Part shown: in pieces, positions 13,861 to 42,765 of the stretch
How the letters are laid out: each line of letters starts with the position of its first letter
Numbering within the stretch: the stretch's first letter is position 1
NCBI RefSeq assembly: GCF_004010195.1
Contig: NC_057719.1
Span: forward strand, 8,242,224 to 8,306,223
Source: Chiloscyllium plagiosum
Taxonomy: Eukaryota
DNA: 64,000 nt
Reading direction: 5' to 3'
Position numbers and translations under genes: made by a program
The notes under the pieces: model-generated
What the model saw: the letters and a program-made list of their open reading frames with translations, nothing else
The model's database searches: none
Told to the model about the DNA's origin: nothing

Positions 13861-14739
13861 CAAATAAAGGTCTGGATTTTGACATTAGCTCCACAATTTA
13901 TAAAATGTGCAGGTGACAGACACCCCCTCTTGGGAGCAGCCTTCATTGATGCTCCTTATGTTAAACTTTTCACAGACTGATTCACACTCAGAAACATAGG
14001 AGCTGGAGTAGGCTATTCAGCCCCTCAGGCCTGCTCCACTATTCAATAGGACCACGGCTGATCATCCAACTCAGTCCCCATACCCTTTGGTGCCTTCAGC
14101 TGTAAGAGCTGTATCCGATTCCACCTTGAAAACATTCAATGTTTTGGCCTTTAATCCCTTTTCGTGACAGAGAATTCCGCAGGCGCACGACTCCCTGGGT
14201 GAAGACAGTTTGGTTTGTCTTCTTCCTTAAACCAGGACCCCTGGTTTCTGGACTCCCCAGTCACCAGAACATCCTAGGAACGTTGCAATGCTGTTGGAGC
14301 GGTGACAGTTTACTGTTATAATCTCAGGGCTTTTGATCCAGAGACCAATGTAATAATCTGAGGGCCTGGGTTCAATTCCTGCTGTGGCAAATGGTCAAAT
14401 TTGGATCCAAAAAAATCTGGGATTAAGAATCTAATGAAGACCATCAAGCCATTGTTAAAAAGAACCAAAACTACCTTCTTTACCCAGTCAGGCCTACATG
14501 TCACTCCAGGCCCACACCAGTGTGGCTGACTCTCAAATGCCTTTTGGGCAATTGGAAAAGGCAATAAATACCAGTGACCAGTGCCACCTCATGCTGTGAA
14601 TAAATCAAATCTTTATTGTGTTTAAACCCATTCAAACTTTATGTTTCTGTGAGATCTCCCCCACCCCCATTCTTCTTAACCACGTCGTCTCTCTTCATAT
14701 ATCAGACCTTCCACCCTAGGGAGCATTCAGGTAAGCCGG

Positions 14740-16282
14740 GTACAGTGTATCAGACTGACTCACACCCATGTAATGTCTCTCAGACTGACACACATGGGTA
14801 CAGTCCCTCAGACTGACTCACACCTGGATACAGTCCCTCAGACTGACTCACACCCAGGCATAGTCTCTCAGACTGACACACACCTGGATACAGTCCCTCA
14901 AACTGACTCACACCCAGGCACAGTCTCTCAGACTGACTCATACCCAGGCACAGTCCCTCAGACTGACTCACACCCAGGCAAAGTCTCTCAGACTGATTCA
15001 CACCCAGGCACAGTCTCTCAGACTGATTCACACCCAGGCACAGTCTCTCAGACTGACAAACACCTGGATACAGTCTCTCAGACTGACTCACACCCAGGTA
15101 CAGTCCCTCAGACTGACTCATACCCAGACACAGTCTCTTAGACTGACTCACACCCAGGCACAGTCCCTCAGACTGATTCATACCCAGGCACAGTCCCTCA
15201 GACTGACTCACACCCAGGCACAGTCTCTCAGACTGATTCACACCCAGGCACAGTCTCTCAGACTGACACACACCTGGATACAGTCTCTCAGACTGACTCA
15301 CACCCAGGTACAGTCTCTCAGACTGACTCATACCCAGACACAGTCTCTCAGACTGACTCATACCCAGGCACAGTCCCTCAGACTGACTCACACCCAGGCA
15401 CAGTCTCTCAGACCGATTCACACATGAGTACAGTCCCTCAGACTGACTCATACCCAGGCACAGTCTCTCAGACTGACTCACACCTGGATACAGACCCTCA
15501 GACTGACTCACACCCAGGCACAGTCCCTCAGACTGACTCACACCCAGGCACAGTCCCTCAGACTGACTCACACCCAGGCACAGTCTCTCAGACTGACTCA
15601 CACCCAGGTACAGTTCCATAAAAGACAATAGGTGCAGGAGTAGGCCATTTTGCCCTTCGAGCCAGCACCACCATTCAATATGATCATGGCTGATAATCCA
15701 CAATCAGTATCCTGTTCCTGCCTTATCCCCATAACCCTTGATTCCACTATCCTTAAGAGCTCTATCAGTCTCTTTCTTGAAAGTATCCAGAGACTTGGCC
15801 TCCACTGCCCTCTGGGGCAGAGCATTCCCTACACCCGCCACTCTCTGGGTGAAGAAGTTTCTCCTCAACTCTGTTCTAAGTGGCCTACCCTTATTTTAAA
15901 CTGTGTCTTCTGGTTCAGGACTCACCCATCAGCGGAAACATGTTTCCTGCCTCCAGAGTGTCCAATCCTTTAATAATCTTATACGCCTCAATCAGATCCC
16001 CTCTCAGCCTTCTAAACTCAAGGGTCTACAAGCCCAGTCACTCCAATCTTTTAGCGTAAGATAGTCCTGCCATTCTGGGAATTGACCGCCGACTGACTCA
16101 TACCTGGGTACAGTCCCTTAGACTGACTCACACCCAGGCACAGTGTCTCAGACTGACTCACACCCAGGTACAGTCTCTCAGACTGACTCACACCCAGGTA
16201 CAGTCTATCAGACTGACTCACACCCAGGTACAGTCTCTCAGACTGACTCACACCCAGGTACAGTCCCTCAGACTGATTCACA
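14740..16282. repeat. 30-bp minisatellite array 1 (CAGACTGACTCACACCCAGGCACAGTCYCT), interrupted at ~15618-16089 by a reverse LINE 3' fragment
   Basis: Clear 30-nt periodicity; about 29 + 6 units estimated from length. Confidence 0.95.
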
Positions 16283-16593
16283 CTGTTGAAAGCAGTTTCC
16301 CTGGCTGGTGTAAATAAGGTTTGCAATGACAGATAATTGGGATTATACCTTAGTTGATTACTTAAGCGATGTTGCTGCTGGAGTGCTTTTCCAGGGTCAT
16401 AAATCTGAATGGCAGTGGGTTTGGAGTCGGGGAATGAGTGGTATGCAGTAAGGGAGGACCAGTGGGGGTCTGGAAATGTTGAGCACATACGGGAGACAGA
16501 CAGTGAGCAGGCGACAATATCCGTGTTTTACACTACAATACCTCCCCTTAGCCAATCGATAACGACTGCCTATTGTCAACATCTGTGTTCTTT

Positions 16594-23570: not shown

Positions 23571-25337
23571 TTCTCAGACTGACTCACATCCAGGTACAGT
23601 CCCACAGACCGACTCACACCCAGATAGAACATAGAACATAGAACAATACAGCACAGAACAGGCCCTTCGGCCCACGATGTTGTGCCGAACTTCTAACCTA
23701 GGACTGACTCACATCCAGGTACAGTCCCACAGACCGACTCACACCCAGATGTAGTTGCACAGACTGACTCATACCAGGGTACAGTTCTACAGACTGACTC
23801 ACACCTGGGTACAGGCCCTCAGACTGACTCACACAAGGGTACAGTCCCACAGACTGACTCACACCCAGGTACAGTCCCTCAGACTGACTCACACCAAGGT
23901 ACAGTTCCACAGACTGACTCACACATGGGTACAGCCCCTCAGATTGACTCACACCCAGGTATAGTCCCTCAGACTGACACACACCCAAGATACAGTCCCT
24001 CAGACTGACTCAAAACCCAGGTACAGTTCCACAAACTGACTCACACCTGAGTACTGTCCCTCAGAATGACTCACACCTGGGTACAGTCTGTCAGACTGAC
24101 TCACACTGGGGTACAGTCTGTCAGACTGACTCACACCTGGGTAGATTCTGTCAGACTGACTCACACTGGGATACAGTCTGTCAGACTGACTCACACTTGG
24201 GTAGATTCTGTCAGACTGACTCACACCTGGGTACAGTCTGTCAGACTGACTCACACCTGGGTACAGTCTGTCAGGCTGACTCACACCTGGGTACAGTCTG
24301 TCAGACTGACTCACACCTGGGTCCAGTCTGTCAGACTGACTCACACCTGGGTACAGTCTGGGTAAAAACAATGACTGCAGATGCTGGAAACCAGATTCTG
24401 GATTAGTGGTGCTGGAAGAGCACAGCAATTCAGGCAGCATCCGAGGAGCAGTAAAATCGATGTTTCGGGCAAAAGCCCTTCATCAGGAATAAAGGCAGTG
24501 AGCCTGAAGCGTGGAGAGATAAGCTAGAGGAGGGTGGGGGTGGGGAGAAAGTAGCATAGAGTACAAGAGGTGAGTGGGATGCCCTGGGGTTGAAGTGTTC
24601 TGAGGCGGAAGATGAGGCGTTCTTCCTCCAGGCGTCTGGTGGTGAGGGAGCGGCGGTGGAGGAGGCCCAGCACCTCCATATCCTCGGCAGAGTGGGAGGG
24701 GGAGTTGAAATGTTGGGCCACGGGGCGGTGTGGTTGATTGGCGTCTCGGCGATGTTCCCTAAAGCGCTCTGCTAGGAGGTGCCCAGTCTCCCCAATGTAG
24801 AGGAGGCCGCATCGGGAGCAACGGATACAATATATGATATTAGTGGATGTGCAGGTAAAAGTTTGATGGATGTGGAAGGCTCCTTTGGGGCCTTGGATAG
24901 AGGTGAGTGAGGAGGTGTGGGCGCAGGTTTTACAGTTCCTGCGGTGGCAGGGGAAGGTGCCAGAATGGGAGGGTGGCTTATAGGGGCGTGGCCCTGACCA
25001 GGTAGTCACGGAGGGAACGGTCTTTGCGGAAGGCGGAAAGGTGTGGGGAGGGAAATATATCCTTGGTGGTGGGGTCTTTTTGGAGGTGGCAGAAATGTCG
25101 GCGGATGATTTGGTTTATGCGAAGGTTGGTAGGGTGGAAGGTGAGCACCAGGGGCGTTCTGTCCTTGTTACGGTTGGAGGGGTGGGGTCTGAGGGCGGAG
25201 GGGCAGGATGTGGACGAGATGTGTTGGAGGGCATCTTTAACCACGTAGGAAGGGAAATTGCGGTCTCTAAAGACCCAAGTCCAGTCTGTCAGACTGACTC
25301 ACACCTGGGTAGAGTTTGTCAGACTGACTCACACCTG
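23571..25337. repeat. 30-bp minisatellite array 2 (same family as array 1), interrupted by a LINE tail (~23624-23700) and a Penelope-like element (~24362-25272)
   Basis: 30-nt periodicity; the distal units are the variant CAGACTGACTCACACCTGGGTACAGTCTGT; the array resumes after the insertion. Confidence 0.95.
24362..25272 (-). mobile_element. 5'-truncated Penelope-like element (GIY-YIG endonuclease + terminal repeat with hammerhead motif)
   Basis: CKTC...NIIYCIRCSRCGLLYIGETGHLLAERFREH...VAQHFN...RRLEEERLIFRLRTLQPQG; reverse of cctgatgaagggcttttgcccgaaacatc at ~24458-24488. Confidence 0.9.
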
Positions 25338-25836
25338 ATTTTCAATTAAATCAAAAAGGCTTTTGGGCCACTATTTTAAAGAACAGAAGGATTCCTGGTC
25401 AATGTTTGTCCCCCAAACAATGAAGAACTGTTCTGGTCATCATCACAGTTTATGATTACATTTCTTCCCTCTCAGATGCTGGAGCAGTCCGTGTCTAAAT
25501 GCAGCAAGATTTTGGTAACCTTCACTCTTGGGCTGGAAGGGAACAAATAAATATTCATGCTACACGAGTGCCCGGCGATAATCATCTCCGACAACAGAGA
25601 ATCTAACCATTATTCTTGACGTTCAATAACATTACCATCACTGAACCACTAAATGATTATTTGGGAACACCGCCAAAAGCAAGTTCTCCCCCAACTACCC
25701 CCTTCCCCCAAACCAAGCCACTCACCATCCTGACTTGGAAATATATCACCGTTCCTTCACTGGCGCTGGGTCAACGTTCTGGAAATCCCACTGTGCAGGC
25801 ATTGTGGATCTATCTACAGCTCAGCAGTCCACCAAG

Positions 25837-25976
25837 GCAGAAGTGAGGACTGTAGATGCTGGAACTCAGAGTCTCGATGAGAGTGGGGCTGGAAAGGCAC
25901 AGCAGGTTAGGCAGCATCCGAGGAGCAGGAAAACCGATGTTTCGGGCAAAAGCCCTTCATCAGGAATTCAGCCCAA
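25837..25976 (-). mobile_element. Short Penelope terminal-repeat insertion
   Basis: 16-bp TSD TCAGCAGTCCACCAAG at 25821-25836 and 25977-25992; hammerhead-like core on minus. Confidence 0.8.
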
Positions 25977-26959
25977 TCAGCAGTCCACCAAGACAGCTCA
26001 TCCCCACCTTCTCAAGGGCAACTAGGGACGGCCAATAAAAGCTGGCCCAGTGAGTGATGGCCACGCCCCATGAGTGGACAAAAGAATTCAACATCTTTTT
26101 GTAACTCCCATTGACCAGGAACTGAATTGAATAGCTATATAAAAACTATGGCCACAAGAGCAGGTCATAGGCGAGGAATTTGGGAGTGCTTAATGATTAA
26201 TGTTGTACTGGGTTAAGAATGTCAAGCAATGGCTTGATTTTTAGGATGGTCCCCTTTCACTAATCCTCCTTTCTATGCCTCAGGTCTCTCTAACGGTCTG
26301 GAGGATATACTGTTAGATATTCTTAACAAGTATCTTGTCTTACGTAACCCGGTATAGTTTATTGCAATAATAGCAATAGGCACACTTAACATTAACTAGT
26401 TAGGGACAATTACATCTACCAGACACCACATACGTCATATCCATTGACAGACTGTGTTGCATCATGACCTTGGCTGCATCTGATGCAATCCTCCCAGCAA
26501 CCCTTTCAGAATCATTCCCTCATCTAAAAATAACTCACCTCCTGACTCCCCAGAGCCTGCCCACCATTACTAGGCACACGTTAGGAGTGTGATGGATTAC
26601 TCCCCACGTGTCTGGATGAGTGCAGTTCCAATGACATGCAAGAAGCTGGATTTCATCCAGGACAAAGCAGCCTGGTTGATTGGCACCTTATCCACGATAC
26701 CTTCGATACCACCACACGGTGGCATAAATGTGTACCCATCAGCAAGATTCAATACAGAATTCATTAGGACTCCCTTATAAGCACCTTCTGAAACCCTCAC
26801 CTCTACCAGTTAGGAGGAGGAGAGCAGATACACCATCTCCAATTTCCTCTCCAAGTCACACTCCATCCTGTCTTGCAAATATATTGCCATTCCTTCACTA
26901 TCACTTGGTCAGAAAGCTAGAACTCCCTGCTGAAGGGCATCAGCTTGATCTCTGGGTTC

Positions 26960-27425
26960 AGCAACCATTTACCAGGATGCTGCCCAGAACAGAGAGTTTG
27001 ACTATAAGGAGAGGCTGGATGGGCTGGGACTTTTTCACTCGAGCATAGGGGTACGAGGGGCTGAACTTTTCGAGATTTATAAAATCAGGAGGTGCATAGA
27101 TAAGGTGAATAGCAAGTCTCTTTTCCCCTAGAGTGTGGGATTTCAAGACTAGGGGATATATTTTTAAGGTGAGAGCAGAAAGATTTTAAAAAGATATGAG
27201 TGACAGACAGAGAGGTTCGTGTGTGGAATGAACTGACAGAGGAAGCGGTGACCGCAGGTACCATTACAACATTTAAAAGACATTTGAATAACTTCATGAG
27301 TAGGAAAGGTTTGGAGGGATATGGGCCAATCGCAGGTAGGTGGGGCCAATTTAGTTTGGGAACATGTTCGGCATGGTCTGGTTGGACCGAAGGGTCTGTT
27401 TCCGTGCTGTATGACTCTATGACTG
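26960..27425 (+). mobile_element. CR1 LINE 3' fragment
   Basis: FTRMLP...VWNEL.EE.V.AGTITTFKRHL and tail ending in gactctat repeats. Confidence 0.85.
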
Positions 27426-28499
27426 CTGAGTCCAGGTCTTTTTGACCAGCAGCGATGGAGGATAGCTACAATTGACTCTTCAGGAAAAGAAGATTAACGT
27501 CAAGGTGTAGTTAATTCCGTGAAAGCTCTTGGTTTGGGTTTCATTGGCGGTCAGACGAAATTGCAAAGGCCGTCGGGAACCAGAGTTGGTACATCTGTCT
27601 CCTTGGTGAGGGTGGGGGAATCCTCATGTATAGTCTCCACCCAACACTGTGTGCCATCATCAGGCTGTGAAATCACTAGCCCCTTCAGAGCTGACAGCTT
27701 ATTTACAGCTAATGTCTTTGCTTAAAGTAACGCAGCAGGGAATAGGAGAGTACTCTAGCAATGTGCAGTGGGCTCCTTAATCCCTGGGAAAGTCACCATA
27801 TGCCCATACTGCTTTTCCAGTTACCTTTGACTGAAATTCAACTCTGTGAGTGCCCCCTGCGGAGGACTAATGTAAGAACCTGCTCCTCCTCTGAAGTTTG
27901 CAATCCTCCACCAGCCACTCAGCCCTCCCTCACCCCTCCCCACCTCCTTCAGGGTGTAAGTTCTGTCTGATTGTCCATATACAGGGTTGCACTGCAGTGG
28001 CAATCACTCTCACTGCACGCAGAACCTCTCGGCCAGCAAAGGTGCCATAATATTCAGTCTGTGTGTGTGTGTGTGTGTAGCTCTCTCCAGACCCATCCCA
28101 TCAGCACTGTAGGCTAATGGCCTGCTGGTTAGCACATGGGAGGCTGTGGGAGCTTGCTGTGCGTGAATTGGCTGATGGATGGTGCTCCTTGCCTTACAGC
28201 AGTGGGACACGCCGGTATGTGCCTCCATTTGGCCTTCAAGCCTTCGCCAATGTTGTTAGGGCTTTGCAGGCGCCATACAAATGCACGCCCTTCCTTTTTT
28301 CACTGATGAAACTTTGACCGTAAAGTTCCCGGAGCAGACTCAAAACAAAACTCAGACTGAACTCTCTCTCTCTCTCTCTCTGTGTGAGTATCTATTACTT
28401 CCACATTTTTCCAACAACAAACGACATTGAAGCTTCGGGTAATCCTGTTTTTTTTTGGAATACAATCTGCGTTCGGTTTTTTTTTGAAACACCAAGTTG

Positions 28500-28570
28500 A
28501 CTCTTTTCCAAAGCGAGCAGCTCACGTGAAGATTTTTCCGGGAGATTAGCCGGGCTCTGTGTATATATGG
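28500..28570 (+). promoter_or_regulatory. Core promoter of the deiodinase gene: palindrome TCACGTGA (28522-28529) and TATA box (TATATA 28562-28567)
   Basis: Motifs seen directly ~400 bp upstream of the ATG and followed by a purine-rich leader. The TSS (~28590-28600) is inferred from TATA spacing only. Confidence 0.65.
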
Positions 28571-28702
28571 ACGGCACTCCAGCAGCTCCTACAGACTCTG
28601 GGACTCGTCTCAAGGGAGCAGCGTCTGCAAACTGGGGGAGAGAGAGAGAGGAGAGATAGAGAGGGGCAGGACAAATATATAGAGAGAGGGGGGGCAGGAG
28701 AG

Positions 28703-28714
28703 ATGGAAATTTAG
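28703..28714 (+). promoter_or_regulatory. uORF1 (ATG GAA ATT TAG; M-E-I-stop)
   Basis: gagATGG strong Kozak context, within the predicted 5' UTR. Confidence 0.6.
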
Positions 28715-28793
28715 AGAGAGAGAGGCAGGAGCGATAGGAGAGAGAGCTGGAGAGTAACATTGGCCAAGCTGAAACAAGAGTTTTAAACGAGTG

Positions 28794-28802
28794 ATGGAAT
28801 AG
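28794..28802 (+). promoter_or_regulatory. uORF2 (ATG GAA TAG; M-E-stop)
   Basis: gtgATGG strong Kozak context, within the predicted 5' UTR. Confidence 0.6.
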
Positions 28803-28969
28803 TTTTCCCAGCATTTTGAAAAGTGTAAGAGCGTCCACCTGGGGGAGAAAAAGACAGCTACAGACCCCAGGGTCTCCTTTCTGCTCTCTCTCCCCCAATT
28901 CCCAGCACTAACCCCTCCTCCCCATAGAGGTAGAGGAGGGTGGTGGGAGGGGAAGGGGAAGGGGCAGGG

Positions 28970-29821
28970 ATGGGTTTGCGCAGTGTTGACCTCCTCATCA
29001 AGCTGCAGATCCTGCCGGGTTTCTTCTCCAGCTGCCTGTTCCTGGCCGTGTACGATTCGGTGGTACTGCTGAAGCAGGCAGTGTCCCGCCTGAGCGGTCC
29101 AGCAGCTGGAGATGGAGTGCCCCGCATGCTGACGGTGGAGGGGATGCAGACGGTGTGGAGGAGCTTCCTGCTGGATGCCGCCAAGCCGGTGAGGCCGGGG
29201 GGCCAGGCCCCCAACCCCCGGGTGGTGAGGCTGGGCGAGCGGCAAGGTGAGGCGGAGCGGCTGCAGAGGGTGGGAGGCCTGGCGGAGTGCCGCCTGCTGG
29301 ATTTTGCCAGCCCTGGGCGACCCTTGGTGGTCAACTTCGGCTCGGCCACCTGACCCCCCTTCGTGGCCAGCCTGCCAGCTTTCTGCCGCACGGCGGAGGA
29401 GTACCAGGCTGGCGCTGACTTCCTGCTGGTCTACATCGATGAAGCTCACCCCTCAGACGGCTGGGCTGCCACCTCGCCCTTCCAGCTGCCCCGTCATCGC
29501 ACCCTGGCCGAGAGGTGTTCCGCCGCTAGCCTCCTCCTCCGGCACTTCCCGGTGCCCCCCCAGTGCCCGGTGGTAGCCGACTGCATGGACAACGAAAGCA
29601 ACGTGGCGTACGGCGTCTCCTTCGAGAGGTTCTGCATCGTGCAGGACCAGAAGATTGTGTACTTGGGGGGCAAGGGGCCCTTCTTCTACAGCCTGGCAGG
29701 GGTCAGGGCATGGCTTGAGCAACACCGTCTGAAACAGGGGGCAAAGGTTGGCAGCGATGCCCCCCACGACCTCCCGGCTCCCATTCCAGCTGCTACCCAC
29801 AGCCCTCAACTGGACGTATAA
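28970..29821 (+). CDS. dio2: Type II iodothyronine deiodinase-like selenoprotein, single coding exon, 283 aa, Sec (TGA) at 29351-29353
   Basis: ORFs 28940..29353 and 29363..29821 are in the same frame and joined by TGA-CCC-CCC-TTC. Joined protein: MGLRSVDLLIKLQILPGFFSSCLFLAVYDSVVLLK...RPLVVNFGSAT-U-PPF...DFLLVYIDEAHPSDGW...AYGVSFER...QKIVYLGGKGPFFY. These are D2-type motifs (N-terminus resembles D2 MGILSVDLL..LQILP.FFS.CLFLA.YDSV.LLK; Ala two residues before Sec where D1/D3 have Cys). ATG in strong context gggATGG. No frameshift or other internal stop. Ortholog versus paralog is unresolved, so read the symbol as dio2-like. Confidence 0.95.
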
Positions 29822-30499
29822 CATCCTGGGAGTGATCTGAAGAAGAATCACTGAAGATATCCAACACCAATGAAGCCATTTCAGCCATTACCAGATGCCA
29901 ACCATTCACCACCATGTCCTTCTCTCCTTAGATGCTGCTGAGCTTCTCTCCGCCTGATTCCGATGTCCGGCCAAAGCCACCGTGTTTTGCTTTGTTTCCC
30001 CTGTGCCTGGCAGTGCTTCCAGTCGCTCCTCTGCCCAGTTCAATGGGCAGACCTATCACTGCCAAGGGGCACCGAACACTGGGCCATAAATACCAACATA
30101 TTCTGGCAGCTTTCGCAACCCGAGATTAAATTTTGTGTTTTACGAAAAGCATCAAGACAAGCAAGAGAACCTTACCCCCTCGCCCGCCTTCAGGTTACAC
30201 AAAAGCCACGTTAAAAACCACCATGAGCGGTCTCTTTCCAAGTGATTAAAAAGACTGAATTGAACAAGAAAGTCTTTCTTCTGGACAGAGACTGTTTTGT
30301 TTAATTACCGTGGGACTGCTTTCAAAATATCCTCCAGGTTTTCCATGTTGATTTTATGTTTAGAAAGTAATTTATTTGTTTTAGTTGAATTCTGTAGCGC
30401 TCTCAAATGTTTGCAGGTCTAACTCAGTTCTTTTGCCATCGTTCTCTGTGCGTTTTCATCAGTGTGCAGAAAATTGCATGTTACATCAGCTTCGTCCTG

Positions 30500-30650
30500 T
30501 CTTATAGTTCAGAAGAGGAGTCCAGAAGGACTCGAAACATTTAACTTTGTCTGTCTGTCTGTCTCTCTCTCTCTCTCCACAGATGCTGCCAGACCTGTTG
30601 AGTTTCTCTCTGTGTTTGCTTTCGTTTTCCAGCACCTGTGGAATTCTGCC
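30500..30650 (+). mobile_element. Degenerate Penelope-derived short element with hammerhead relic (30506-30546) inside the deiodinase 3' UTR
   Basis: AGTT-CAGAAGA-G-GAGTCC agaa GGACTC-GAAACATTT-AACT, then ...ctctccacagatgctgccagacctg.tgagtttctc..., matching other copies at ~37528-37660 and ~48605-48740. Confidence 0.75.
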
Positions 30651-30714
30651 TCTCTGTTCTAAGTTATTGAGTTCCTGGGTCCACCTGCAGCAACCGATGA
30701 GGCCAGGCTGGGGA

Positions 30715-30802
30715 GGGAGTGCGTGTGCAGAATGAAGATAACTGACCAAAGAGTCCTGCACTCAGTCAGTATTCGGAAGAGGAAGCAGCACTGCCCACTC
30801 CC
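30715..30802 (+). promoter_or_regulatory. SECIS element (type II) in the 3' UTR of the deiodinase gene
   Basis: ATGA at 30732-30735; helix II GATAACTGAC / GTCAGTATTC; unpaired AAA at 30748-30750; apical mini-stem GAGT/ACTC; GGAA at 30775-30778 completes the GA/GA core; lower stem GGGAGTG (30715-30721) / CACTCCC (30796-30802). Lies between the stop codon and the poly(A) signal. Confidence 0.9.
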
Positions 30803-30918
30803 ATTGTGGAAGAATGTGGAAGGAGTCTGACTGTCTGCCTTGGAATTATTTATATAGATAGATAGATAGATAGAATCAACTTGTGGTGCTATGCAGTGTG
30901 CACTTTTATCTGTGTTAT

Positions 30919-30924
30919 AATAAA
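30919..30924 (+). terminator. Polyadenylation signal AATAAA of the deiodinase gene
   Basis: AATAAA ~120 nt after the SECIS, followed by GT/T-rich sequence (ggttttgtagctgacttgttt). Confidence 0.75.
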
Positions 30925-31397
30925 AGGTTTTGTAGCTGACTTGTTTCCGTGATGCTTTATTTAATTGTACAACAATAACTGAGGGACCCTGCCTCTGACC
31001 TGGAAGGTGGGCTCCAAAGATGTCCTCACCCATCCTGTCAGATTGGTTACATATATTTGTAATGGGTGTCTGGTTATGTTGCAGTGGTAGCTGACTTCTT
31101 TTGCATCTGTGTTTGGTTATTTAATTGAACAATGATTGAGGATCCCTTGTGGTGCTGTGGTAGTGTCCCTACCTCTGAGCCATAAGGCCCACATTCAAGT
31201 CCCACCTGGTCCAGAGGTGTGCATTAACATCTCTGAATAAGTACTTTAGGAAATATCTGTGTTAATAATTGTCCCAAAGCCACTCTGCAGTTAATGAATT
31301 ACTTTCTAAACGCTTAGTCAGTGACACTGCCATGTGACAAAGAGCAAGATTTAGTTTTTGTTTCAAAGTGATATTGATTGGGAATAAATATTGGCTA

Positions 31398-34032
31398 CTC
31401 AGCAAATGGGGGATGATCTCTCCTGCTTTCCTTTGAGACACGCCTCGGGCGAGCGTTGCTGCTCACCCACCTGTCGCTGCTTACTAGCTGAATAGGAAAT
31501 AACCAACCCCCGAGCATAGGCTTTAGCTGTTTCCCAAAGAATGGATGGGCTACTGGCTGAGTCTGAGTTAATATCTAAAAAAGCCCTGAGCTCAGTAAAA
31601 AAGAATTCAATAAACTTGTTATCCTTAAGGATGAAGGGGTCCAGTCGCCAGTGCCTTGAGCCTACCACTGTATCCTTATTCTTAACCATTAAATACACTA
31701 GGGTGTGATCAGAAATAGCCATTATGCCAATTGTACATGACATCTCCGAGCTCAGATGTGCTGCGGGAGTCAGAAAAAGATCAATCCTGGTATGGCATTT
31801 ATGTGGGTTCGAAAAGAACATGAAGTCCCTGCCAGTTGGGTGAAGGTGCCTCCAAACATCTACCAACCCCAATTCAGCACATGAATTCCTTAATCGTTTA
31901 GATCGCAAAGAAGATATCAGTGGGCCTTCAGGCAATCTGTCTCCCGTAGGGTCTATGAAACAATTGAAATCCTCTCCAATGATGATTTGTTGAGATACAA
32001 GGTTAACCAGTCTAGAAAGTGCGTCTGTCAAGAATTTAAGGGGGTGGGATGGGGGACAGGAAACATTTAAGATCCCGTATTCTTCCCCATGTATCAAAGC
32101 TTTAAGGATTACAAATCTCCTGTGTGTGTCTTTAATGCACTCTAAAAACTTAAATGAGAGATTCTTTCTAACTAGAATGGCCACCCCTCGAGTCCTCGTA
32201 TTGAAAGATGAAAAATAAACCCAGTCATACCCATTCTGTTGCAGCTTCAAATGTTCTGCATCATCCAGTTGTGTTTCTTGTAATAAGGCAAGATCCATCC
32301 TCTCCCTTTTAAGGCTGGAGAATACCTTCTTCCTCTTGACAGGTGAATGACTCTTCTTAATATTCTAGGTGCACCATTAGCCATGACCTTCCATAGCACC
32401 ACCTAGAGTCCAGAGAGGAAGAACCCAAACTGCAGATTGCTGAGCTTTAATGCAAAAGAATCTACAAAACCCAAAAACTACACAGACTAAAATAACTACA
32501 GCCAACAAATCTACAAAACTTACAAAATCTATGTACAGCAAAAACAGAAACACAAAAAATTGTCAAAGGCACTGATTGGAGGAACCATCCCGACCGCCCT
32601 CTCAAATCCTACCAACTCGGGTCATACCACATACACCAACCGCCGTCTCAACTCCGACCAACCCGGGTCGTGCCACATACACCAACCGCCGTCTCAACTC
32701 CGACCAACCCGGGTCATACCACATACACCAACCACCCTCTCAACTCCTACCAACTCGGGTCGTACCACATGCACCAACCACCCTCTCAACTCCTACCAAC
32801 TCGGGTCATACCACATACACCAACCACCCAGTAGAGAAAAAAACAAACACCCAAAGCAAGGTTTGTAATATAAACAAGTAATCTAAAAATAACCATGTTA
32901 CCCATCCCTTAACATAAGTTAAAAATTAAAGATAAATACTCTATCCATCCCGGACATCATTTCACGCAACTTATTACCAGAAAGGAGACTCCACCAAGTC
33001 CTTTTTAAAAAAGATTAAACGTGAACAGCTCTGTCCTATTCGGCCATTCAACTTAAGTCAATGTGACCACAAAGTTCTTCATTTTTTCTGGCGAGTCGAA
33101 CAAATGGATGAATCCGTTATGATTAATCGGAAGCACTACTGGATATCTTAAAGAATACGGGATCCCATGCTCTCTCAATCTCCTCTTGACACCGTCGTAG
33201 GACTTCCTTCTCCGGACCACTGCCGCCAAGAAGTCTTGAAAAAACATGATCCTGGAGCTGCCACATACCAACGCCCTCAGGTCCCTCCCCTGGGTTTGAG
33301 AGGCTTCCATGACCTTCTGCTTGTCTTTATAATGATGGAACCTCACCAGGACAGGACGTGGGCACTGCTCCATGCCTGGCCTTCATGCCACGATCCGATG
33401 GGCTCTTTCAATTGTTATCCTTCCCTTCTCAACCTCCAAACCAAGGAACTCCAGGAACCACTTCTCAAAGAACTCCACCGGCCACTCACCTTCTGTCCTG
33501 TCCAGTATGCCAACAAAGCGCAGGTTCTTTCTCCTGCCCCTGTTTTCGGGATCGTTTACCAGATCCAACAGACCCTGGTCCTGTGTTTCCAGAGCTTCAA
33601 TCCGGCTCTTGGAGGAGTCAGTCTATGCATCTTCCCCACCAGCCTGGCGCTTGAGCTCATCGGTCCTTTGTCTCAGGTCTTGCACAATAGCATATACAGA
33701 AGCCAGCTTCTCCCTGATTTTTCCTGGATCTGCCTCCCCAGGACCTCACGAGATCTGGCCAGCTCCTCAACGAGGGTCTGGTGAATAAGCGAGCCTGCTG
33801 CTTCAGACGACTGGGCCATGGCCCGGGCCCTGGATGGGCTTCCTCCTTTCGTCCCATTCTCCAGCTGCAAGGACAAAGGTAAGTCAATTTTTTTTCAAGT
33901 TTCTAGCTCTTTTCCTGTGTTTTTACTCGCAATAAAGTGTTTGGGATGGATCCTGGCTCTGTTGGGTCAGTGTTGCAGTGCAGAACCCAGCAAATGAGAT
34001 CCTAACAGGACGCCGCCATCTTGGTTCGCCCC
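31398..34032 (-). mobile_element. L1-clade LINE, 5' portion only (5' end, degenerate ORF1, ORF2 endonuclease)
   Basis: 5' end GGGGCGAACCAAGATGGCGGC; ORF1 motifs ENRGRRKNLRFVGI, IERAHR, PRPVLVRF, IMFFQDF; APE motifs LLQET, RGVAILV, IIGEDFN, DVWR.LHP, TRIDLFL, ISDH. No RT seen. Confidence 0.9.
32593..32830. repeat. 46-bp tandem repeat (~5 copies) in the L1 inter-ORF region
   Basis: Unit aaccgccgtctcaactccgaccaacccgggtcgtgccacatacacc; offset 32641 to 32687 = 46. Confidence 0.9.
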
Positions 34033-34422
34033 TTAAGTCCCTTTTAAACCATTCCCCTTTCACCTTAATCCTATGCCCTCGAGTTTCGGACTCTCCTACC
34101 CTGGGGAAATGACCTTGTCTGTTTACCCTATCCATGCCCCTCCTGGTTTTAATAAGGAGGAACAAGACAGAAGCAAATAAAGTGAATGAGAGTAAAATTA
34201 GAGACTTGATACTCAAAGAGCGGGAAAGGACAATTCGATGGAGAGAACGAGAGAGAGAGTCAAAGTTACTTGAAGGGAAAAGTCTATAGTGATATGGAGA
34301 AAATGATTCCCCAATGAGCCAGATGCCTCTTTTTCTGCTCAATATTCAACATGAGAAGCATAATGGAAAAGTAAGGAAACAGTTTTAGCATTTTAAATTA
34401 TTAAATCCTTGCACTTTAATTG

Positions 34423-35762
34423 TGTTGGCATGGTGGCTCAGCAGTTGGCACTGCTGCCTCACAGTGCCAGGGACCTGGGTTCGATTCCAGCCTCGGGTCT
34501 CTGTCTCTGTGGAGTTTGCATGTTTTCCTTGTCTATGTGAGTTTCTTCCCACAGTCCAAACATGTGCAGGTTAGATGGATTGGCCGTGCTCAATTGCCCA
34601 TAGTGTCCAGGGATGTGTAAGCTAAATGAATTATGGTCCTGATACGGTCTCCTCTACATTGGGGAGACAGAATGCCTACTTGCAGAGTGCTTCAGAGAAC
34701 ATCTCGGGGACACCTGCACCAACCGACCCCACCGCCCCGTGGTCAAACACTTCAACTCCCCATCCCACTCTGCCGAGGACATGCAGGTGCTGGGCCTCCA
34801 CCACCGCCACTCCTTAACCACCCGACGCCTGGAGGAAGAATGCCTCATCTTCTGCCTCGGGATCCTCCAACTCCATGGCATCAATGTGGATTTCACCAGT
34901 TTCCTCATTTCCTCTTCCCCCACCTTATCCCAGTTCCAACCTTCCAGCCCAGCACCGCCCACATGACCTGGGTCACCTCTCAATTTTCCTTCCCACCTAT
35001 CCAGTCCACCCTCCCCTTTGACAATCATCATTGTCCCCACCTCCATCTACCTGTCACATTCCCAGCTAACTTCCCCCCAACCGTGCCCCCTCCCATTTAT
35101 CTCACCACCCTCTCGGCTCACAGCCTCATTCCTGATGAAAGGCTTTTGCCCGAAATGTCCATTCTCCTGTTCCTCGGATGCTGCCTGACCGGCTGTGCTT
35201 TTCCAGCATCACACTCTTCGACTTTCATTTCCAGCATCTGCATTCCTCACTTTTGCCAAGCTAAATAGAGTCATAGAGTCATAGAGATGTACATCATGGA
35301 AACAGACCTTTCGGTCCAACCCATCCATGTGGACAGATATCCCAACCCAATGTAGTCCCACCTGCCAGCACCCGGCCCATATCCCTCCAAATCTTAAATG
35401 TTGCAATTGTACCAGCCTCCACCACTTCATCTGGCAGCTCATTCCATACACGTACCTACCTCTGTGTGAAAAGGTTGCCTCTTAGGTGTCTTTTATATCT
35501 TTCCCCTCTCACCCTAAACCTATGCTCTCTAGTTCTGGACTCCCCCACCTCAGGGAAAAGACTTTGCCTATTTATCCTATCCATGCCCCTCATAATTTTG
35601 TAAACCTCAATAAGGTCACCCCTTAGCCTCTGATGCTCCAGGGAAAAATGGATCCGCCATGGGAAATGCAGGGTTAGGGGGATGGGGTGGGTCTGGGTGG
35701 GATCCTCTTCGGAGCGTCAGTGCAGGTTTTGTGGCCTGCTTCCACACTGTAGGGTTCTATGA
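34423..35762 (+). mobile_element. SINE split by a Penelope GIY-YIG fragment (34628-35257, +) and a CR1 3' fragment (~35267-35648, -)
   Basis: TSD AAGCTAAAT at 34619-34627 and 35258-35266 flanks the Penelope piece (HFNSPSHSAEDMQVLGL...RRLEEE); the SINE tail resumes at ~35655. Confidence 0.8.
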
Positions 35763-38208
35763 TAATTATACATAGGAGTAATGCACTTCAGTTACAATTG
35801 TTCGCTTTCTGGATCTTCACGGTAGCGTTTGGCATCAGGACCATGAATCAACTCCTTAAATAGCTCCATACGCTATGAAATAGCAGCTGTAATTACCATT
35901 CATGCCTATTGAGGGCATATACCCAGCAAATCCTTGACTCTCACTGGGAGATTGATGGCAAACTCCTTGGTTTTTCCAAGGCCCATGAAGAACGATGTGA
36001 ATTGTCCAGCCATTTGTAAAGGTTCACCACTCGGGACTGTGTCCTTCCATTGTATGTCACCTTCCCTGTTGCTGTTCCAACCGTGGTAAGCTTATGTTTT
36101 GCCTGGAATCAGATTCAAGGAAGGATGTTCTTGGATGTGAATGACCAGCCGGTTGCCTGTTTCATGGGGCAGACTGGGGGCCAAGAGTATGATGGTGACC
36201 TCCTGTGATGGAGCTGTGTTTAACCTGGCCTGTCCCTTTAAGGTTGCTGACAGCAGCAGATAATTGGTTTCAAAAGCGACATCCTGGTAATTGTAACTGG
36301 CTTAAATTTCGAGCTCCAAGAGAAGGGGGTCTGTGAACAAATTAATTGGGTTTCTTTTTTCTCCCTAAGCTCCCTTTGGAACTGTACCAAGGTGTGACAG
36401 GCAGGATCTCTGGAGTGTGGTGGATACCTGTTAGACAGGAGGCAGAATGGCTCAAATAAAGAATGGTAAAGTATACGTAAGAAAAAGAGAGAGAGGAAAA
36501 AATTGGATGAAATGTGACACTACGGGATTCTGTGGCAATGTCCACTCTGAGAAAAAGAACAGGAAATGACATCACCATAGGAAATTACATCACCACAGGA
36601 AATGACATCACCAAGCCAACGAAACCAAAACATATAAATGGACAGCAGGAATCATCAGCAGTGCTTCGTCTGGAGGCTCACTGAAGATGTTACCTAGCGT
36701 GGTGATGAAACATCTGAAAATGAACCTTTCAGCTCAGTGAGCAAACCTACATCCAGAACCTCAACTTGAGCTACAAACCTTCTCAAAACTCGCTAGTGTC
36801 CACTTTGTTTGTCTAGGATAAACTACAATCTGACCCAAATAGTTCAGCATGTGTTGATTACCAAGTGGAGTGATTTGTGTAGACCGCAGCAAAACCCGAA
36901 TGCAGCGACAAAGTCGTGGGATTTAAGTCTGACCCATTGACAGTGTCACCAAGTCTATCCTTCTGAGTAAAAGAGTTCCTAAGGCACTCCACCAATGTTT
37001 GGCGTAGAAGGAGACAAAGTTTGGGAAATGCTTTTATTTTATTCACTTGTGAGATGAGGCTGCCAGTGTGTACTGCCCGTTCCCAGTTTCCCTTCAGAAG
37101 GTGGTACTGAGCTGTCTCTCTGAACGGCTGTAGGCCACCCACTGTAGATGCTGTTCATTAGGGAATTCCAAAACTTTGACCCAGTAGAACTTCCGAAACT
37201 GGTATCGATGGAGAAAAGTTTGGTTCCCTCATGTACACAGACCTTCATTTATATTGCACCCTTTCACAACCTTAGATCTTTGCACTCATTGGAAGTTCTT
37301 GCTAAAATCGAGTCCCAGTTATGAAGTACTATAAACAGTAGGTCAATATGTACACAGCAAGCTCCCACAGACAGCAATGTGACAACAGATCACCTGTTTA
37401 AGTGACAGAAACAGACATTGCTGGAGAAACTTGACAGGCCTGGTGAGGTCTGCTGAGAGAAAGTGAAGATAACATTTGGAGCCCAATGATACTTCATCAG
37501 AATTTCCGAAGAAGGGCTACAGATAAAAAGTTCTGAAGAAGGGTCACTGGATCTGAAACATTAACTCTGTTTCTCTCTCCACAGATGGTGCCAGACCTGC
37601 TGAGTTTTTCTAGCAATTTCTGTTTTTGTTTCAGATTGCCAGCATCTGCATTTCTTTGCTGTAGTTTTACGTTCTAGTGACATTGGTTCAGAGAGACATG
37701 GTGGGCAGGTTATTGGATATAATGCCCTGTGCTTTCTTTTAGAAACAGTGCCATCTTTTACAGTCAGCTGAGAGGGCAGTAGGGACCACTGTTTAACGTC
37801 TCATCTGAAAGAGGACACATCTGACAGTGCAACACTCTCTGAAAACATTCAGTAAAGTGCCCATAGGGGGTTGTTGTACAAAAGTAGGTTTATGGGTTAT
37901 AGGCTGCACATTAGCATGGTTTGAGCATTAGTTAATGGACAGGGTAGTGTAGATTTAGATTTAGATAACTTACAGTGTGGAAACAGGCCCTTTGGCCCAA
38001 CAAATCCACACCGACCCTCCAACGAGCAACCAAACCAGACCAATTCCCCTGCGTTTATTCCTTCACCTAACACTACGGGTAATTTAGCATGGCCAATTCA
38101 CCTAACCTGCACATTTTTGGACTGTGGGAGGAAACCGGAGCACCCAGAGGAAACCCACGCAAGGGTCATTTTTGGGATGTAAGTAGTGGAGTAATACAAG
38201 AATGCATG

Positions 38209-39872
38209 CAAGGTTTGTGAAGGTTTGTAGCTCAGGTTGAGGTTTAGGGTGTAGGTTTGCTCGCTGAGCTGTAGGTTTGATATCCAGATGTTTCATTACC
38301 TGGCTAGGTAACATCATCAGTGGCGACCTCCAAGTGAAGCGAAGCTGTTGTCTCCTGCTTTCTGTTTATGTGTTTGTCCTGGATGGGGTTCCTGGGGTTT
38401 GTGGTGATGTCATTTCCNNNNNNNNNNNNNNNNNNNNNNNNNNNNNNNNNNNNNNNNNNNNNNNNNNNNNNNNNNNNNNNNNNNNNNNNNNNNNNNNNNN
38501 NNNNNNNNNNNNNNNNNNNNNNNNNNNNNNNNNNNNNNNNNNNNNNNNNNNNNNNNNNNNNNNNNNNNNNNNNNNNNNNNNNNNNNNNNNNNNNNNNNNN
38601 NNNNNNNNNNNNNNNNNNNNNNNNNNNNNNNNNNNNNNNNNNNNNNNNNNNNNNNNNNNNNNNNNNNNNNNNNNNNNNNNNNNNNNNNNNNNNNNNNNNN
38701 NNNNNNNNNNNNNNNNNNNNNNNNNNNNNNNNNNNNNNNNNNNNNNNNNNNNNNNNNNNNNNNNNNNNNNNNNNNNNNNNNNNNNNNNNNNNNNNNNNNN
38801 NNNNNNNNNNNNNNNNNNNNNNNNNNNNNNNNNNNNNNNNNNNNNNNNNNNNNNNNNNNNNNNNNNNNNNNNNNNNNNNNNNNNNNNNNNNNNNNNNNNN
38901 NNNNNNNNNNNNNNNNNNNNNNNNNNNNNNNNNNNNNNNNNNNNNNNNNNNNNNNNNNNNNNNNNNNNNNNNNNNNNNNNNNNNNNNNNNNNNNNNNNNN
39001 NNNNNNNNNNNNNNNNNNNNNNNNNNNNNNNNNNNNNNNNNNNNNNNNNNNNNNNNNNNNNNNNNNNNNNNNNNNNNNNNNNNNNNNNNNNNNNNNNNNN
39101 NNNNNNNNNNNNNNNNNNNNNNNNNNNNNNNNNNNNNNNNNNNNNNNNNNNNNNNNNNNNNNNNNNNNNNNNNNNNNNNNNNNNNNNNNNNNNNNNNNNN
39201 NNNNNNNNNNNNNNNNNNNNNNNNNNNNNNNNNNNNNNNNNNNNNNNNNNNNNNNNNNNNNNNNNNNNNNNNNNNNNNNNNNNNNNNNNNNNNNNNNNNN
39301 NNNNNNNNNNNNNNNNNNNNNNNNNNNNNNNNNNNNNNNNNNNNNNNNNNNNNNNNNNNNNNNNNNNNNNNNNNNNNGGGTGTGCCGTTGGTTTGTTTGT
39401 AGATTATGTTGTTGAAGGTGAAGTGGGTGGTGAGGCACAGGTCCACTAGCTTCATGATGTTTTCGCTCAGAATGTGATTGATGGTGGTTGGGGTGGGTGT
39501 GATGGCCTCTTCTAAAAGTGTAGTAAGTGTTTCCTTTGCCAGGTCGATGTTGATGGAGGTGAACAGTGCTGTTACGTCGAATGAAATCATTGTTTAGCCT
39601 GGGCCAGAGAATTCCTAGAGGCCTGGCACTCCAACCACAACGCCATAAACAAACACATAGATCTAGATGCCATCTATCAATCCCTCAGAAAATGAACAGG
39701 AAATGACATCACCACAAACCCCAGGAACCCCATCCAGGACAAACATATAAATAGAAAGCAGGAGACAACAGCTTCGCTTCACTGGGAGGTCGCCACTGAT
39801 GATGTTACCTAGCCGGGTAATGAAATGTCTGGATATCAAACCTACAGCTCAGCGAGCAAACCTACACCCTAA
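38209..39872 (-). mobile_element. Penelope-like element (second family) with inverted terminal repeats; interior mostly gap
   Basis: RT motif MISFDVTALFTSINIDLA...LCLTTHFTFNNIIYKQTNGTP; 13-bp TSD ACAAGAATGCATG at 38196-38208 and 39873-39885; hammerhead motifs at 38284-38323 (-) and 39793-39832 (+). Confidence 0.85.
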
Positions 39873-39994
39873 ACAAGAATGCATGTTCAGTTATTTACAA
39901 ACGATGCCAATGAGATAAATGAGAGGACTGTTCTAATGTATCCAAGGTTGGTGATGACACAAAACTGGTTGGGACAGTGAGCTGTGAGAAAGCC

Positions 39995-40048
<54 letters not shown>

Positions 40049-40685
40049 CACAGGGAGATATCAATAAGATGGATGAATAGGCAAGAATGTGACACGTGGA
40101 ATGTAGTAACAGGGAGCTGTGACAAAATCCACTTTGGAAGGAGGTGGAGAAAACCACAAAATGTTTATATCAAGGGAGAGACTGGGAGTTGCTAACATTC
40201 AATGGGACTTGGATGTCCTAGCAGGTGAAGCATGTCTATTTAGCAAACAGGTCAAAGAGAAAATAAGGAAACGCAAAGATTTGTTGGTTTTAATGAGCTG
40301 GGGATTGCATTGTGAAAGCTGATTTAAGGGCATTAGTCAGAGTACACCTGGTCTTGCAAATTCACTTTCCTTGCTGTTTGCAGTTCACTGAAGGGAAGCC
40401 ACATTGCTCAGGCAGCATGCATTGTTGTAGGCTGGTGTCATAGACAATGTCAGTGGAGGCTCCAATTATTTTACATCTCAAGGCCGGCTCAGAATCTCTC
40501 CCACTCTTCCCAGGGGCTGCAAGCACTGATGAGTTCATTTCCAGCCTGTCTGGTCACATTGTGAATGCCCCATCCTTGACCAGCAATTCCTGGGGTGAGG
40601 CTCAAAACCAGACCTTCTAGTTTCGAGGCAGGGCCACATAACACCTCCTTTGGTCTCCATAGGAGCCTCAAGAAAACTATACTTA

Positions 40686-40907
40686 GCAGGTTTTGAGAAG
40701 ATTTATAGCTCAGGTTGAAGTTCTGGATGTAGGTTTGCTCGCTGAGCTGGAAGGTTCTTTTTCAGACGTTTCGTCGCAATACTAGGTAACATCTTCAGTG
40801 ACCTTCCAGACGAAGCTTCCATCTGGAGGCTCACTGATAATGTTACCTAGTATGGTGACGAAACATCTGAAAATGAACTTTCCAGCTCAGTGAGCAAACC
40901 TGTACCT
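40686..40907. mobile_element. Palindromic Penelope-derived mini-insertion, hammerhead motif in each arm
   Basis: 13-bp TSD AAAACTATACTTA at 40673-40685 and 40908-40920; minus arm UCA-CUGAAGA-U-GUUAC...GCGAC-GAAAC-GUC-UGA. Confidence 0.8.
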
Positions 40908-41044
40908 AAAACTATACTTACTTTAGACAGAGTGCAATGAAGTGTTCTTGAGATGAGAGGATTATCATCTTGGGAGGGATTAAACTAACTAAGCCTATAT
41001 TCCCTGAATCCTGGACATCCAGAGGTAATCTTGGACAGTCTAGG

Positions 41045-42765
41045 GGTGTTGGCAAAGAGGGGGCAGATGTAGGAAAGTGTGAGGTTATACACTTTGGTCG
41101 GAAGTGGTTTAGACTATTTTCTAAACTAGGCAAGTCTTCGGAGATCTGATGCACAAAATGGTTTGGGAATCCTAGTTCAGGATTCTCAAAGGTTAAAATA
41201 CAGGTTCAGTTGGCAGTTAGGAAAATAAATGCAATGTCAGCATTATTTGAAAATTGCTAGAGCACAAAGGCAGAGATGTGCTGCTGAGGCTGTATTTGGT
41301 CGCATTTGGAATATTGTGAACAGTTTTGGGCCCAGTATTTGAGGAAGGATGCGTGCATTGGAGTTGGTCCAGAGGAGGTTTACAAGAGTGATCCCAGGGA
41401 TGATGGGCTTGTCAACATGAGGAGCAGCTGAGTCTGTACTTGATGGAGTTGGAGGGATGATTGAAACTTACAGAGTATTGTGAGGCCTGGATGGAGTGTA
41501 TGTGGAGAGAATGCTTCCACTAGTGGGAGAGACTAGGACTCAAGGGCACAGCCTCAGGTTAAAGAGAGGACCCTTTAGACCTGAGTTAAGGAAGAATTTC
41601 TTCAGCTAGAGGGCAGTGAATTTCTGGAACAGAAGACTGTGGAGGCAAGTCATTGAGCATATTTAAGACAGAGATAGGTAGGTTCTTGATTAGTCAGGGG
41701 GTCAAGGATAATGGGGAAAAGGCAGCAGAATGGGGTTGAGAAATATATCAGCCATGATCGAATGGCAGAACAGACTCAATGGGCAGAATGGCCTAATCCT
41801 GCTCCTATATCTCCTGGTCTTATCTCATTGAAGTAAATAAGCATTCCTGCATGGTTTGGATGCTCGGAACTGGTTGGGGAGTCTAAACTATTGGGCATAA
41901 GGCTAAAGGATCAGCCTTACAACTGATAACTTTGGATCTTTGGAGTCCTCACCTGAGGGTGCAGCTCACAGATCCTTGAAAGTGAAGAAGGCTTTGGGTG
42001 CACTCGCCTTTATTGGTCAGTGCATTGAGTATAGGGGTTGGGAGGTCATGTTGCGGCTGGACATGACATTGGCTAGGCCGCTATTGGAATATTGTGTACA
42101 ATTCTGGTCTAGAGTGATGCTGGAAAAACACAGCAGGTCAGGCAGCATCCGAGGAGCAGGAAAATCGATGTTTCGGGGAAAAGCCTTTCATCAGGAATCT
42201 CCAGCATCCGCAGTTCCCACTTCTGCCTATAATTCTTGTCCCCCTGCCCTCGGAAGGATGTTGTGAAATTTGAAAGGGCTCCGAAAAGATTTACAAGGAT
42301 GTTGCCAGGGTTGGAGGATTTGAGCTATAGGGAGAGACTGAAAAGGCTGGGGCTGTTTTCCCTGGAGCGTCGGAGGCTGAGTGGTAATCTTATAGAGGTT
42401 TACAAAATTATGAGGGGCATGGATAGGATAAATAGGCAAGGTTTTTTTCCCAGGATAGCGGAGTCCAAAACTACAGGATATAGGCTTAGGGTGAGGGGGT
42501 AAGATATTAAAGGGACCAAAGGAACAATGTTTTAACACAGAGAGTGATGTGTGTATGGAATGAGCTGTCAGAGGAAGTGGTGGAGGTTGGTACAATTGCA
42601 ACATTTAAAAGGCACCTGGATGAGAATGTGAAGAGGAAGGGTTTAGAGGGATATGGGCCAAGTGCTGACAAATGGCATAGATTGAGTTAATCTGGTCGGC
42701 ATGGATGAGTTGGACTGAATGGTCTGTTTCTGTGCTGTACGTTTCTATGATTCTATAACTCTATC
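41045..42765 (+). mobile_element. Two CR1-clade 3' fragments, the second interrupted by a short Penelope repeat (~42108-42228)
   Basis: LEYCVQFWS, KRFTRMLPGLEDLSYRERLKRLGLFSLERRRL motifs and tails. Confidence 0.8.

Follow-up and report, generated by a model that had tools for sequence, protein, structure and literature searches.

The window analyzed here, a 64,000-nucleotide stretch of the Chiloscyllium plagiosum genome (C10:8,242,224-8,306,223 of the assembly), carries a gene of the deiodinase 2 (DIO2) type whose coding sequence runs without an intron. The question raised by this locus is whether the gene is a deiodinase paralog that had gone unrecognized, possibly an ohnolog, as the initial annotation proposed, or whether it is the DIO2 gene of the shark itself. 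We consider it very probable that the locus is the shark's one and only DIO2, at its native position and most likely functional; the orthology is drawn from the tree, from synteny, and from single-copy status. Judged by its sequence, the gene is best described not as a new deiodinase but as an ordinary single-copy shark DIO2 ortholog of compact, intron-free structure.

The coding frame and its family

Translation of the window yielded one open frame, which runs, as the initial annotation had described it, uninterrupted from ATG 28970 through TGA 29351 to TAA 29821 with the deiodinase motifs kept. Three features of this region are used below.

28970..29821, + strand: single-exon DIO2 coding sequence, 283 codons plus TAA (translation, Pfam, alignment, tree)
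29351..29353, + strand: TGA, predicted to be read as selenocysteine, residue 128, GSAT-U-PPF (translation; alignment with solved DIO2 and DIO3)
29741..29818, + strand: extra C-terminal tail of ~26 residues (alignment and translation)

The 283 codons are closed by the TAA at 29819-29821, and the sole internal stop of the frame is the TGA of codon 128, which lies within ...VVNFGSAT-U-PPF. This in-frame UGA has the D2-type context G-S-A-T-U-P-P-F and falls in the same alignment column as the selenocysteine (Sec) of DIO2 in other species; it also aligns with the Sec/Cys position of the solved DIO2 and DIO3 structures. The protein matched the Pfam family T4_deiodinase (PF00837, thioredoxin-fold) with an E-value of 1.7e-85, residues 5-252 aligning with profile positions 2-236 of 237. 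Assignment of the protein to the D2 type was upheld: among solved structures the closest were DIO2 (9h48, 224.8 bits) and DIO3 (4tr3, 158.8 bits), the Sec context is SAT-U-PPF, and the sequence fell within the DIO2 clade (discussed later). The coding sequence has a GC content of 0.65, rising to 0.80 at third codon positions (GC3).

In addition to the Pfam family and the SAT-U-PPF context, the window protein shares with vertebrate DIO2 (9h48 and the proteins of teleosts, amphibians, and mammals) a conserved hydrophobic anchor at the N-terminus, of the form MGLxSVDLLIxLQILPGFFS..., and the motifs EAHPSDGW, CMDN, and GGKGPF (GGKGPFFY in its longer form), all of which were present in the alignment. 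Two differences from tetrapod and other DIO2 sequences lie at the C-terminus, where the window frame lacks a second in-frame TGA and carries the tail GAKVGSDAPHDLPAPIPAATHSPQLDV, extending ~26 residues beyond the ends of the other proteins. The second in-frame UGA of tetrapod DIO2, also near the C-terminus, shows as W in read-through ORFs (e.g., P0002).

Several partial sequences were available for comparison with the window protein.

Chiloscyllium punctatum chiPu_0007781 (P0232): 127 aa, ending ...GSAT; 97% identity to the window protein
EukProt model P0246: 90 aa; 88% identity
Scyliorhinus torazame scyTo_0007720 (P0240): 125 aa (123 aligned); 72% identity
Callorhinchus C-terminal fragment: 118 aa; 66% identity

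The C. punctatum and S. torazame models are N-terminal halves of the same gene (97% and 72% over 127 and 123 residues, respectively), but they differ from the window frame in stopping at the residue before Sec. That gene callers would truncate such a gene at its TGA had been anticipated, and these two public models, of 127 and 125 aa, end exactly so. A full 283-residue shark DIO2 model, together with its candidate SECIS, can now be drawn up; the public annotations of related sharks end at the Sec codon.

Deiodinase genes in the assembly

The genome searched was a 3.56-Gb assembly of 101,977 contigs, and the counts that follow refer to the best-scoring candidates in assembled sequence. A six-frame protein search of the whole genome returned four matches among 13 scored candidates: the window locus, one D3-type locus, and two D1-type exons on contig C11, the latter matching the window protein only at E-values of 1e-6 to 1e-7. 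With the Pfam profile, 10 of 14 candidates matched, and all of these lay at the DIO2, DIO3, or DIO1 loci, in a tandem D1-like neighbor, or on a 1-kb D1-like scrap. Neither search had a further dio2-type sequence, intron-bearing or intronless, among its scored candidates.

The D3-type locus, at C10:35.86 Mb, resembles the window gene in having a single-exon, intronless coding sequence, in lying on the same contig, and in having a SECIS close to its stop codon. It differs in its SCT-U-PPF context, in its identity to the window protein (48%), and in belonging to a separate clade. The D1-type deiodinase is a multi-exon gene at C11:66,764,042-66,768,712. A second set of D1-like exons lies ~26 kb downstream (C11:66,790,442-66,794,936), with one TGA and four TAA codons in its first-exon match, and further D1-like exons were seen on a 1-kb scrap contig (C1074:34-1003); the second set and the scrap could represent a tandem duplicate, a pseudogene, or a haplotig.

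A 2026 survey that includes nine cartilaginous fishes reports DIO2 from all vertebrate lineages and names extra copies only for salmonids and lampreys (PMC13134290). The trees in its supplement have labels for species of Chiloscyllium and Hemiscyllium (PMC13134290).

Chromosomal neighborhood

Domain searches of the contig around the window placed the gene in the following order.

C10 7.49 Mb, + strand: large ORF with Stonin2_N and Adap_comp_sub domains
C10 7.63-7.67 Mb, + strand: exons of the TFIIA large subunit
C10 8.27 Mb, + strand: DIO2 (this locus)
C10 8.73-10.47 Mb, - strand: five Laminin_G exons (alpha-neurexin)

From its domains, we identified the minus-strand Laminin_G gene as an alpha-neurexin, a call that holds at the level of the class and not specifically for NRXN3; its outermost exon encodes a signal peptide, LNS1, and an EGF domain, and matched neurexin-1-alpha with 285 bits. 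A second TFIIA gene and a second large LamG array are present on C9, which carries no deiodinase. The gene order on human chromosome 14 is STON2-GTF2A1-DIO2-NRXN3, in the same relative orientation as in the shark, with DIO3 on that chromosome as well; the D3-type gene of the shark is likewise on the contig that carries DIO2. Set against this human order, the sequence places the window gene in the native DIO2 neighborhood, and the chromosomal neighbors can be added to what it appears to share with vertebrate DIO2.

The initial annotation had also pointed to CEP128 and TSHR as neighbors, and neither was located in the block between the TFIIA gene and DIO2, where the stretch scanned holds 13,361 N. 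ORF and GPCR-motif scans found no TSH-receptor exon in C10:7,668,001-7,868,000, directly after the TFIIA gene and comprising those 13,361 N. In the corresponding Pfam searches for TSHR, PF12369 gave no match, and none of the 127 matches to PF13306 was near the DIO2 locus. These negative results do not indicate that the receptor gene is absent.

Phylogenetic placement and divergence

A protein search with the window sequence returned 134 proteins at E ≤ 0.001 among 4019 candidates. The higher-scoring matches that were named by type were called deiodinase 2 or type II; many others were named just "iodothyronine deiodinase", and weak cnidarian matches followed. Identity to full-length named DIO2 proteins was 55-62%. 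The best full-length match reached only 62% because shark DIO2 models, which end at the Sec codon, fell under the length filter.

The maximum-likelihood tree comprised 32 rows, with the N-terminal-only fragments P0232, P0240, P0246, and P0282 left out and no vertebrate DIO1 protein included. DIO2 formed one clade (support 100/99) and DIO3 a separate one (93/96). Within DIO2, the window gene grouped with two Logan fragments of chondrichthyan type and with Callorhinchus (84/69), and this group was sister to bony-vertebrate DIO2 (90/88). By its sequence relationships, this pattern is that expected of an ortholog and not of an old paralog. The end branch of the window gene measured 0.17. Consistent with this grouping, the alignment revealed a signature common to chondrichthyan DIO2 in which the loop after GW is four residues shorter than in bony-vertebrate DIO2 and is followed by FQLxRHR.

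We also considered a special acceleration of the window gene and rejected it, other chondrichthyan DIO2 being as distant from bony-vertebrate DIO2. Identity to bony-vertebrate DIO2 was 56-67% for the window protein and 59-69% for catshark and chimaera, and the DIO3 of the same genome has 50-64% identity to most named bony-vertebrate DIO3. Since catshark and chimaera DIO2 and the same-genome DIO3 have diverged similarly, no special acceleration need be assigned to the window gene.

The coding intron of bony-vertebrate DIO2

The feature that sets the shark gene most plainly apart from bony-vertebrate DIO2 is the absence of a coding intron at AYKQ|VKLG, a departure in gene structure only.

29183..29194, + strand: K72-P73|V74-R75, equivalent of the phase-0 intron of bony-vertebrate DIO2 (AYKQ|VKLG), read through (sequence and alignment)

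The segment LLDAAKP-VRPGGQAPN (~29168-29215) is colinear with bony-vertebrate LLDAYKQ|VKLGGEAPN, with neither insertion nor gap in the alignment. The point equivalent to the junction lies between nucleotides 29188 and 29189, and the frame is continuous across it, so that a split into two coding exons is not found here. The statement that vertebrate DIO2 has a single coding intron near LLDAYKQ|VKLG agrees with the ORFs of other species. Nine of them (P0069, P0072, P0073, P0075, P0076, P0078, P0080, P0086, and P0090) begin with unrelated residues and meet DIO2 exactly at Q|VKLG. A gar model, P0068, has unrelated residues between AYKQ and VKLG, which we read as a retained intron.

In the same genome, the first coding exon of DIO1 reads through the homologous stretch (...GDDAFKGYPAPNTRV...). 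Given this read-through and the intronless state of DIO3, the AYKQ|VKLG intron has so far been seen only in bony-vertebrate DIO2, and this restriction leaves room for the view that sharks display the primitive state. We suggest, tentatively and with some doubt, that shark DIO2, being intron-free, may have kept the gene's original state, the intron of bony-vertebrate DIO2 then having been gained. If the intron is missing from chimaeras, rays, and cyclostomes too, the ancestor of DIO2 and DIO3 would have had none, and the intron of bony-vertebrate DIO2 would be a dated gain on the osteichthyan stem, an event of a kind that is very rare in vertebrates. As an alternative to gain, the intron may have been lost precisely in sharks, for instance in place by recombination with a cDNA. 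The option already raised in the initial annotation, absence of the intron at the native locus, fits both the synteny and the single-copy data, under which (i) gain in bony vertebrates and (ii) loss in place are both possible.

We found no description of shark dio2 exon structure in the literature searched; the figures of the 2026 survey mark introns graphically, and its Fig. 4 and Fig. S4 may already give those of chondrichthyan DIO2 (PMC13134290). According to a 2012 survey of selenoproteomes, all Dio3 genes are intronless, and the other vertebrate selenoprotein genes except SPS2b are multi-exon (PMC3316567). The intron-free shark DIO2 is an exception to this rule.

Untranslated regions and candidate SECIS

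Beyond the coding sequence, four features were placed on the + strand.

28438..28969, + strand: minimum 5' UTR, colinear and intron-free, with GA/CT microsatellites and two TATA-like words (organism B contig)
29822..30945, + strand: probable short 3' UTR, end approximate (organism C and A contigs; SINE-like repeats follow)
30724..30789, + strand: candidate SECIS of the form with an extra mini-helix; extended stem ~30709-30803 (Rfam SECIS_1, 16.8 bits; fold)
30919..30924, + strand: AATAAA, candidate polyadenylation signal (sequence)

The initial annotation had listed a TATA element, a SECIS, and a polyadenylation signal. The AATAAA is present. The TATA-like words are present as well, at 28562-28568 and 28676-28681 upstream of the ATG, but neither is shown to act as a promoter because the organism B contig already begins at 28438. 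The SECIS stands as a candidate, with a score of 16.8 bits.

The candidate at 30724-30789 (+), which scored 16.8 bits (gathering score 35), was the only match to SECIS_1 in 29822-31100. The E-value was 1 in a search of 211 nt and 6.1 in one of 1279 nt over all 4227 Rfam families, which amounts to ~1e-3 for one family (6.1/4227). The putative element has AUGA at 30732-30735, an unpaired AAA at 30748-30750, and GA at 30776-30777. In the predicted fold, a long helix I leads to an internal loop formed by AUGA and GA, followed by helix II, which has 8 bp and two mismatches inside it, then by a bulge of AAA and, at the apex, by a mini-helix of 4 bp; the minimum-energy fold was no more stable than those of shuffled sequences (z -1.06). 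Strict SECIS pattern scans missed this candidate because of the two mismatches in helix II. Rfam returned no SECIS match at gathering thresholds over the whole window, nor at E ≤ 10 over 27000-45000. The SECIS of DIO3 in the same genome scored 32.1 bits with the same model, likewise under 35, indicating that SECIS_1 under-scores real elements here; the DIO2 candidate is still the weaker of the two.

The Sec codon is a further likeness to vertebrate DIO2, and a SECIS in the 3' UTR would be another if the candidate is real; at ~1.4 kb from the UGA, the shark candidate differs in its spacing from the SECIS of mammalian Dio2. For the 3' UTR of mammalian Dio2, the 2012 survey gives an average length of 5174 nt; among the mammalian selenoproteins, whose UGA-to-SECIS distances span 207-5207 nt overall, Dio2 has on average the longest (PMC3316567).

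We propose that DIO2 would be transcribed here as a compact, intron-free mRNA of ~2.5 kb, and that its UGA codon 128 would be recoded to selenocysteine by way of the candidate SECIS hairpin, ~0.9 kb past the stop codon. The product, by analogy with its family, would be a membrane-anchored thioredoxin-fold enzyme that takes outer-ring iodine off T4, giving T3. For selenocysteine insertion, enzyme activity, and transcript ends alike, we infer these properties from family membership. If the predicted function is real, DIO2 works with a SECIS near the stop codon, and not ~5 kb away.

The 5' UTR microsatellite, which is GA-rich (28630-28760), varies in length between organisms, with ~140 extra letters in the organism B contig. 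Directly after the polyadenylation signal, at 30880-31300, lie SINE-like, partly duplicated segments.

Coverage in sequencing data

Contig sets of RNA-like character from three related organisms (A-C), whose RNA status is a guess, and one raw single-cell RNA run were aligned on 25000-38000. An organism B contig of 2290 nt (depth 34) aligned colinearly over 28438-28661 and 28651-30537, with three substitutions and with all listed indels (28638, 28735, 30021, and 30441) outside the coding sequence. Organism C contigs covered 29138-30205, 30176-30538, and 30587-30923. An organism A contig covered 30587-30825 with no difference from the window, and coverage of the coding sequence in that organism was near zero. 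In the flanking unique bins (27604-28037 and 35850-36283) depth was 0 in organism B and 0.36 and 2.75, respectively, in organism C, and repeats reached thousands. In organisms B and C, the confinement of coverage to ~28438-30923 is more in keeping with transcripts than with genomic reads, the RNA status of the contigs being guessed. Contig ends coincide with microsatellites or adjoining repeats, that of organism C falling at 30923. Over the SECIS region (bin 30642-31075) organism B had zero coverage. The single-cell run contributed 0 reads at the locus and is no valid test of expression.

The stretch, or part of it, is contained in 20 sequencing runs from organisms A-C, none of them on record as RNA. 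Half or more of the sampled words are kept in 16 of these runs, and 12 runs of organism A (X1-X12, from three studies) contain 78-94% of the words. From this word content it follows that the stretch and its flanks form one continuous piece of genomic DNA.

Alternative explanations

Three other accounts of the locus were weighed. An ancient extra DIO2 paralog, kept as an ohnolog in cartilaginous fish beside the canonical dio2, would explain why identity to full-length named DIO2 proteins is just 55-62% and why the gene structure is unlike that of all described dio2 genes. The genome searches found no other dio2-type locus in assembled sequence; moreover, the window gene itself occupies the stonin-2/TFIIA/neurexin block, and the paralogous copies on C9 are without a deiodinase. 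The tree joins the gene to chimaera DIO2, in keeping with the species tree, and the DIO2 of catshark and chimaera has diverged to the same degree from its bony-vertebrate counterpart, so that the modest identity is no mark of this gene in particular. We regard this account as the least likely of all those considered. The proposal of an unrecognized paralog therefore does not stand: the locus is the sole dio2-type locus found, its neighborhood is canonical, and it behaves in the tree as a chondrichthyan DIO2 ortholog. The initial annotation had itself stated that its proposal would fall if the gene proved to be the genome's only dio2, at the canonical locus, with shark dio2 already known to be intronless; the first part is the result that genome search and synteny returned, and the second was met in none of the papers searched.

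A processed retrogene, inserted elsewhere and replacing a lost parent, would account for a coding sequence that is both intron-free and GC-rich (GC3 0.80), and it has a precedent. In placental mammals, according to the two surveys, the parent gene gave way to the intronless SEPHS2b (PMC3316567, PMC13134290). Like the window gene, SEPHS2b is a selenoprotein gene that, in one lineage, exists only as an intronless copy; SEPHS2b, however, was retrotransposed to a new place, with both copies present in marsupials, whereas DIO2 here is native (PMC3316567, PMC13134290). The gene keeps both its native block and, with respect to the stonin-2, TFIIA, and neurexin genes, its native orientation, and the colinear organism B contig also takes in 530 nt or more of sequence before the ATG; these two observations make a retrocopy that landed elsewhere unlikely. 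In addition, no second dio2-type sequence survives in the genome as a remnant of a parent, there is no A-run after 30924, and there is no target-site duplication, the only direct repeats flanking the gene being of microsatellite type; the last two absences weigh little, since old insertions lose both. The earlier view that a simple retrocopy is disfavored thus agrees with the native block and with the lack of a poly(A) remnant or target-site duplication, and we consider this account very unlikely. A retrocopy re-inserted in its own locus is indistinguishable from cDNA-mediated intron loss.

It is slightly more doubtful still that the locus is a pseudogene, decaying or silent, or that cDNA gave rise to an artefact in the assembly. 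The 0 reads of the single-cell RNA run and the low SECIS score could be taken to favor a pseudogene or artefact of this kind. They are opposed by a 283-codon frame that is intact, with a TGA only at the Sec position, by the 97% identity of the first 127 residues to C. punctatum, and by an organism B contig with only three substitutions and with indels outside the coding sequence. An artefact is further opposed by the presence of the stretch as genomic DNA with its flanks, at least half of the words being kept in 16 of 20 runs. We therefore retain the reading of the locus as the shark's single, native DIO2.

Other features of the window

Repeats of several kinds occupy other parts of the window. 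A 321-aa open frame at 31399-32364 (-) is apparently a retroelement, with repeat-type coverage and many mismatches. Runs of N at ~8740-9450, 13200-13260, 38420-39400, and 55490-56290 (2543 N in all, none near the gene) represent assembly gaps or withheld stretches in repeat-rich sequence. Two tandem arrays with a unit of ~30 nt (14680-16530 and 23978-24479) are open in several frames on both strands (SQTDSHPGTV / GVSQSERLCL-type) and look like minisatellites. Finally, a near-perfect hairpin of ~45 bp at 40771-40861 (-) matched the plant family MIR5649 with 43.8 bits, against a gathering score of 100, and most probably represents a palindromic repeat element, not a microRNA.
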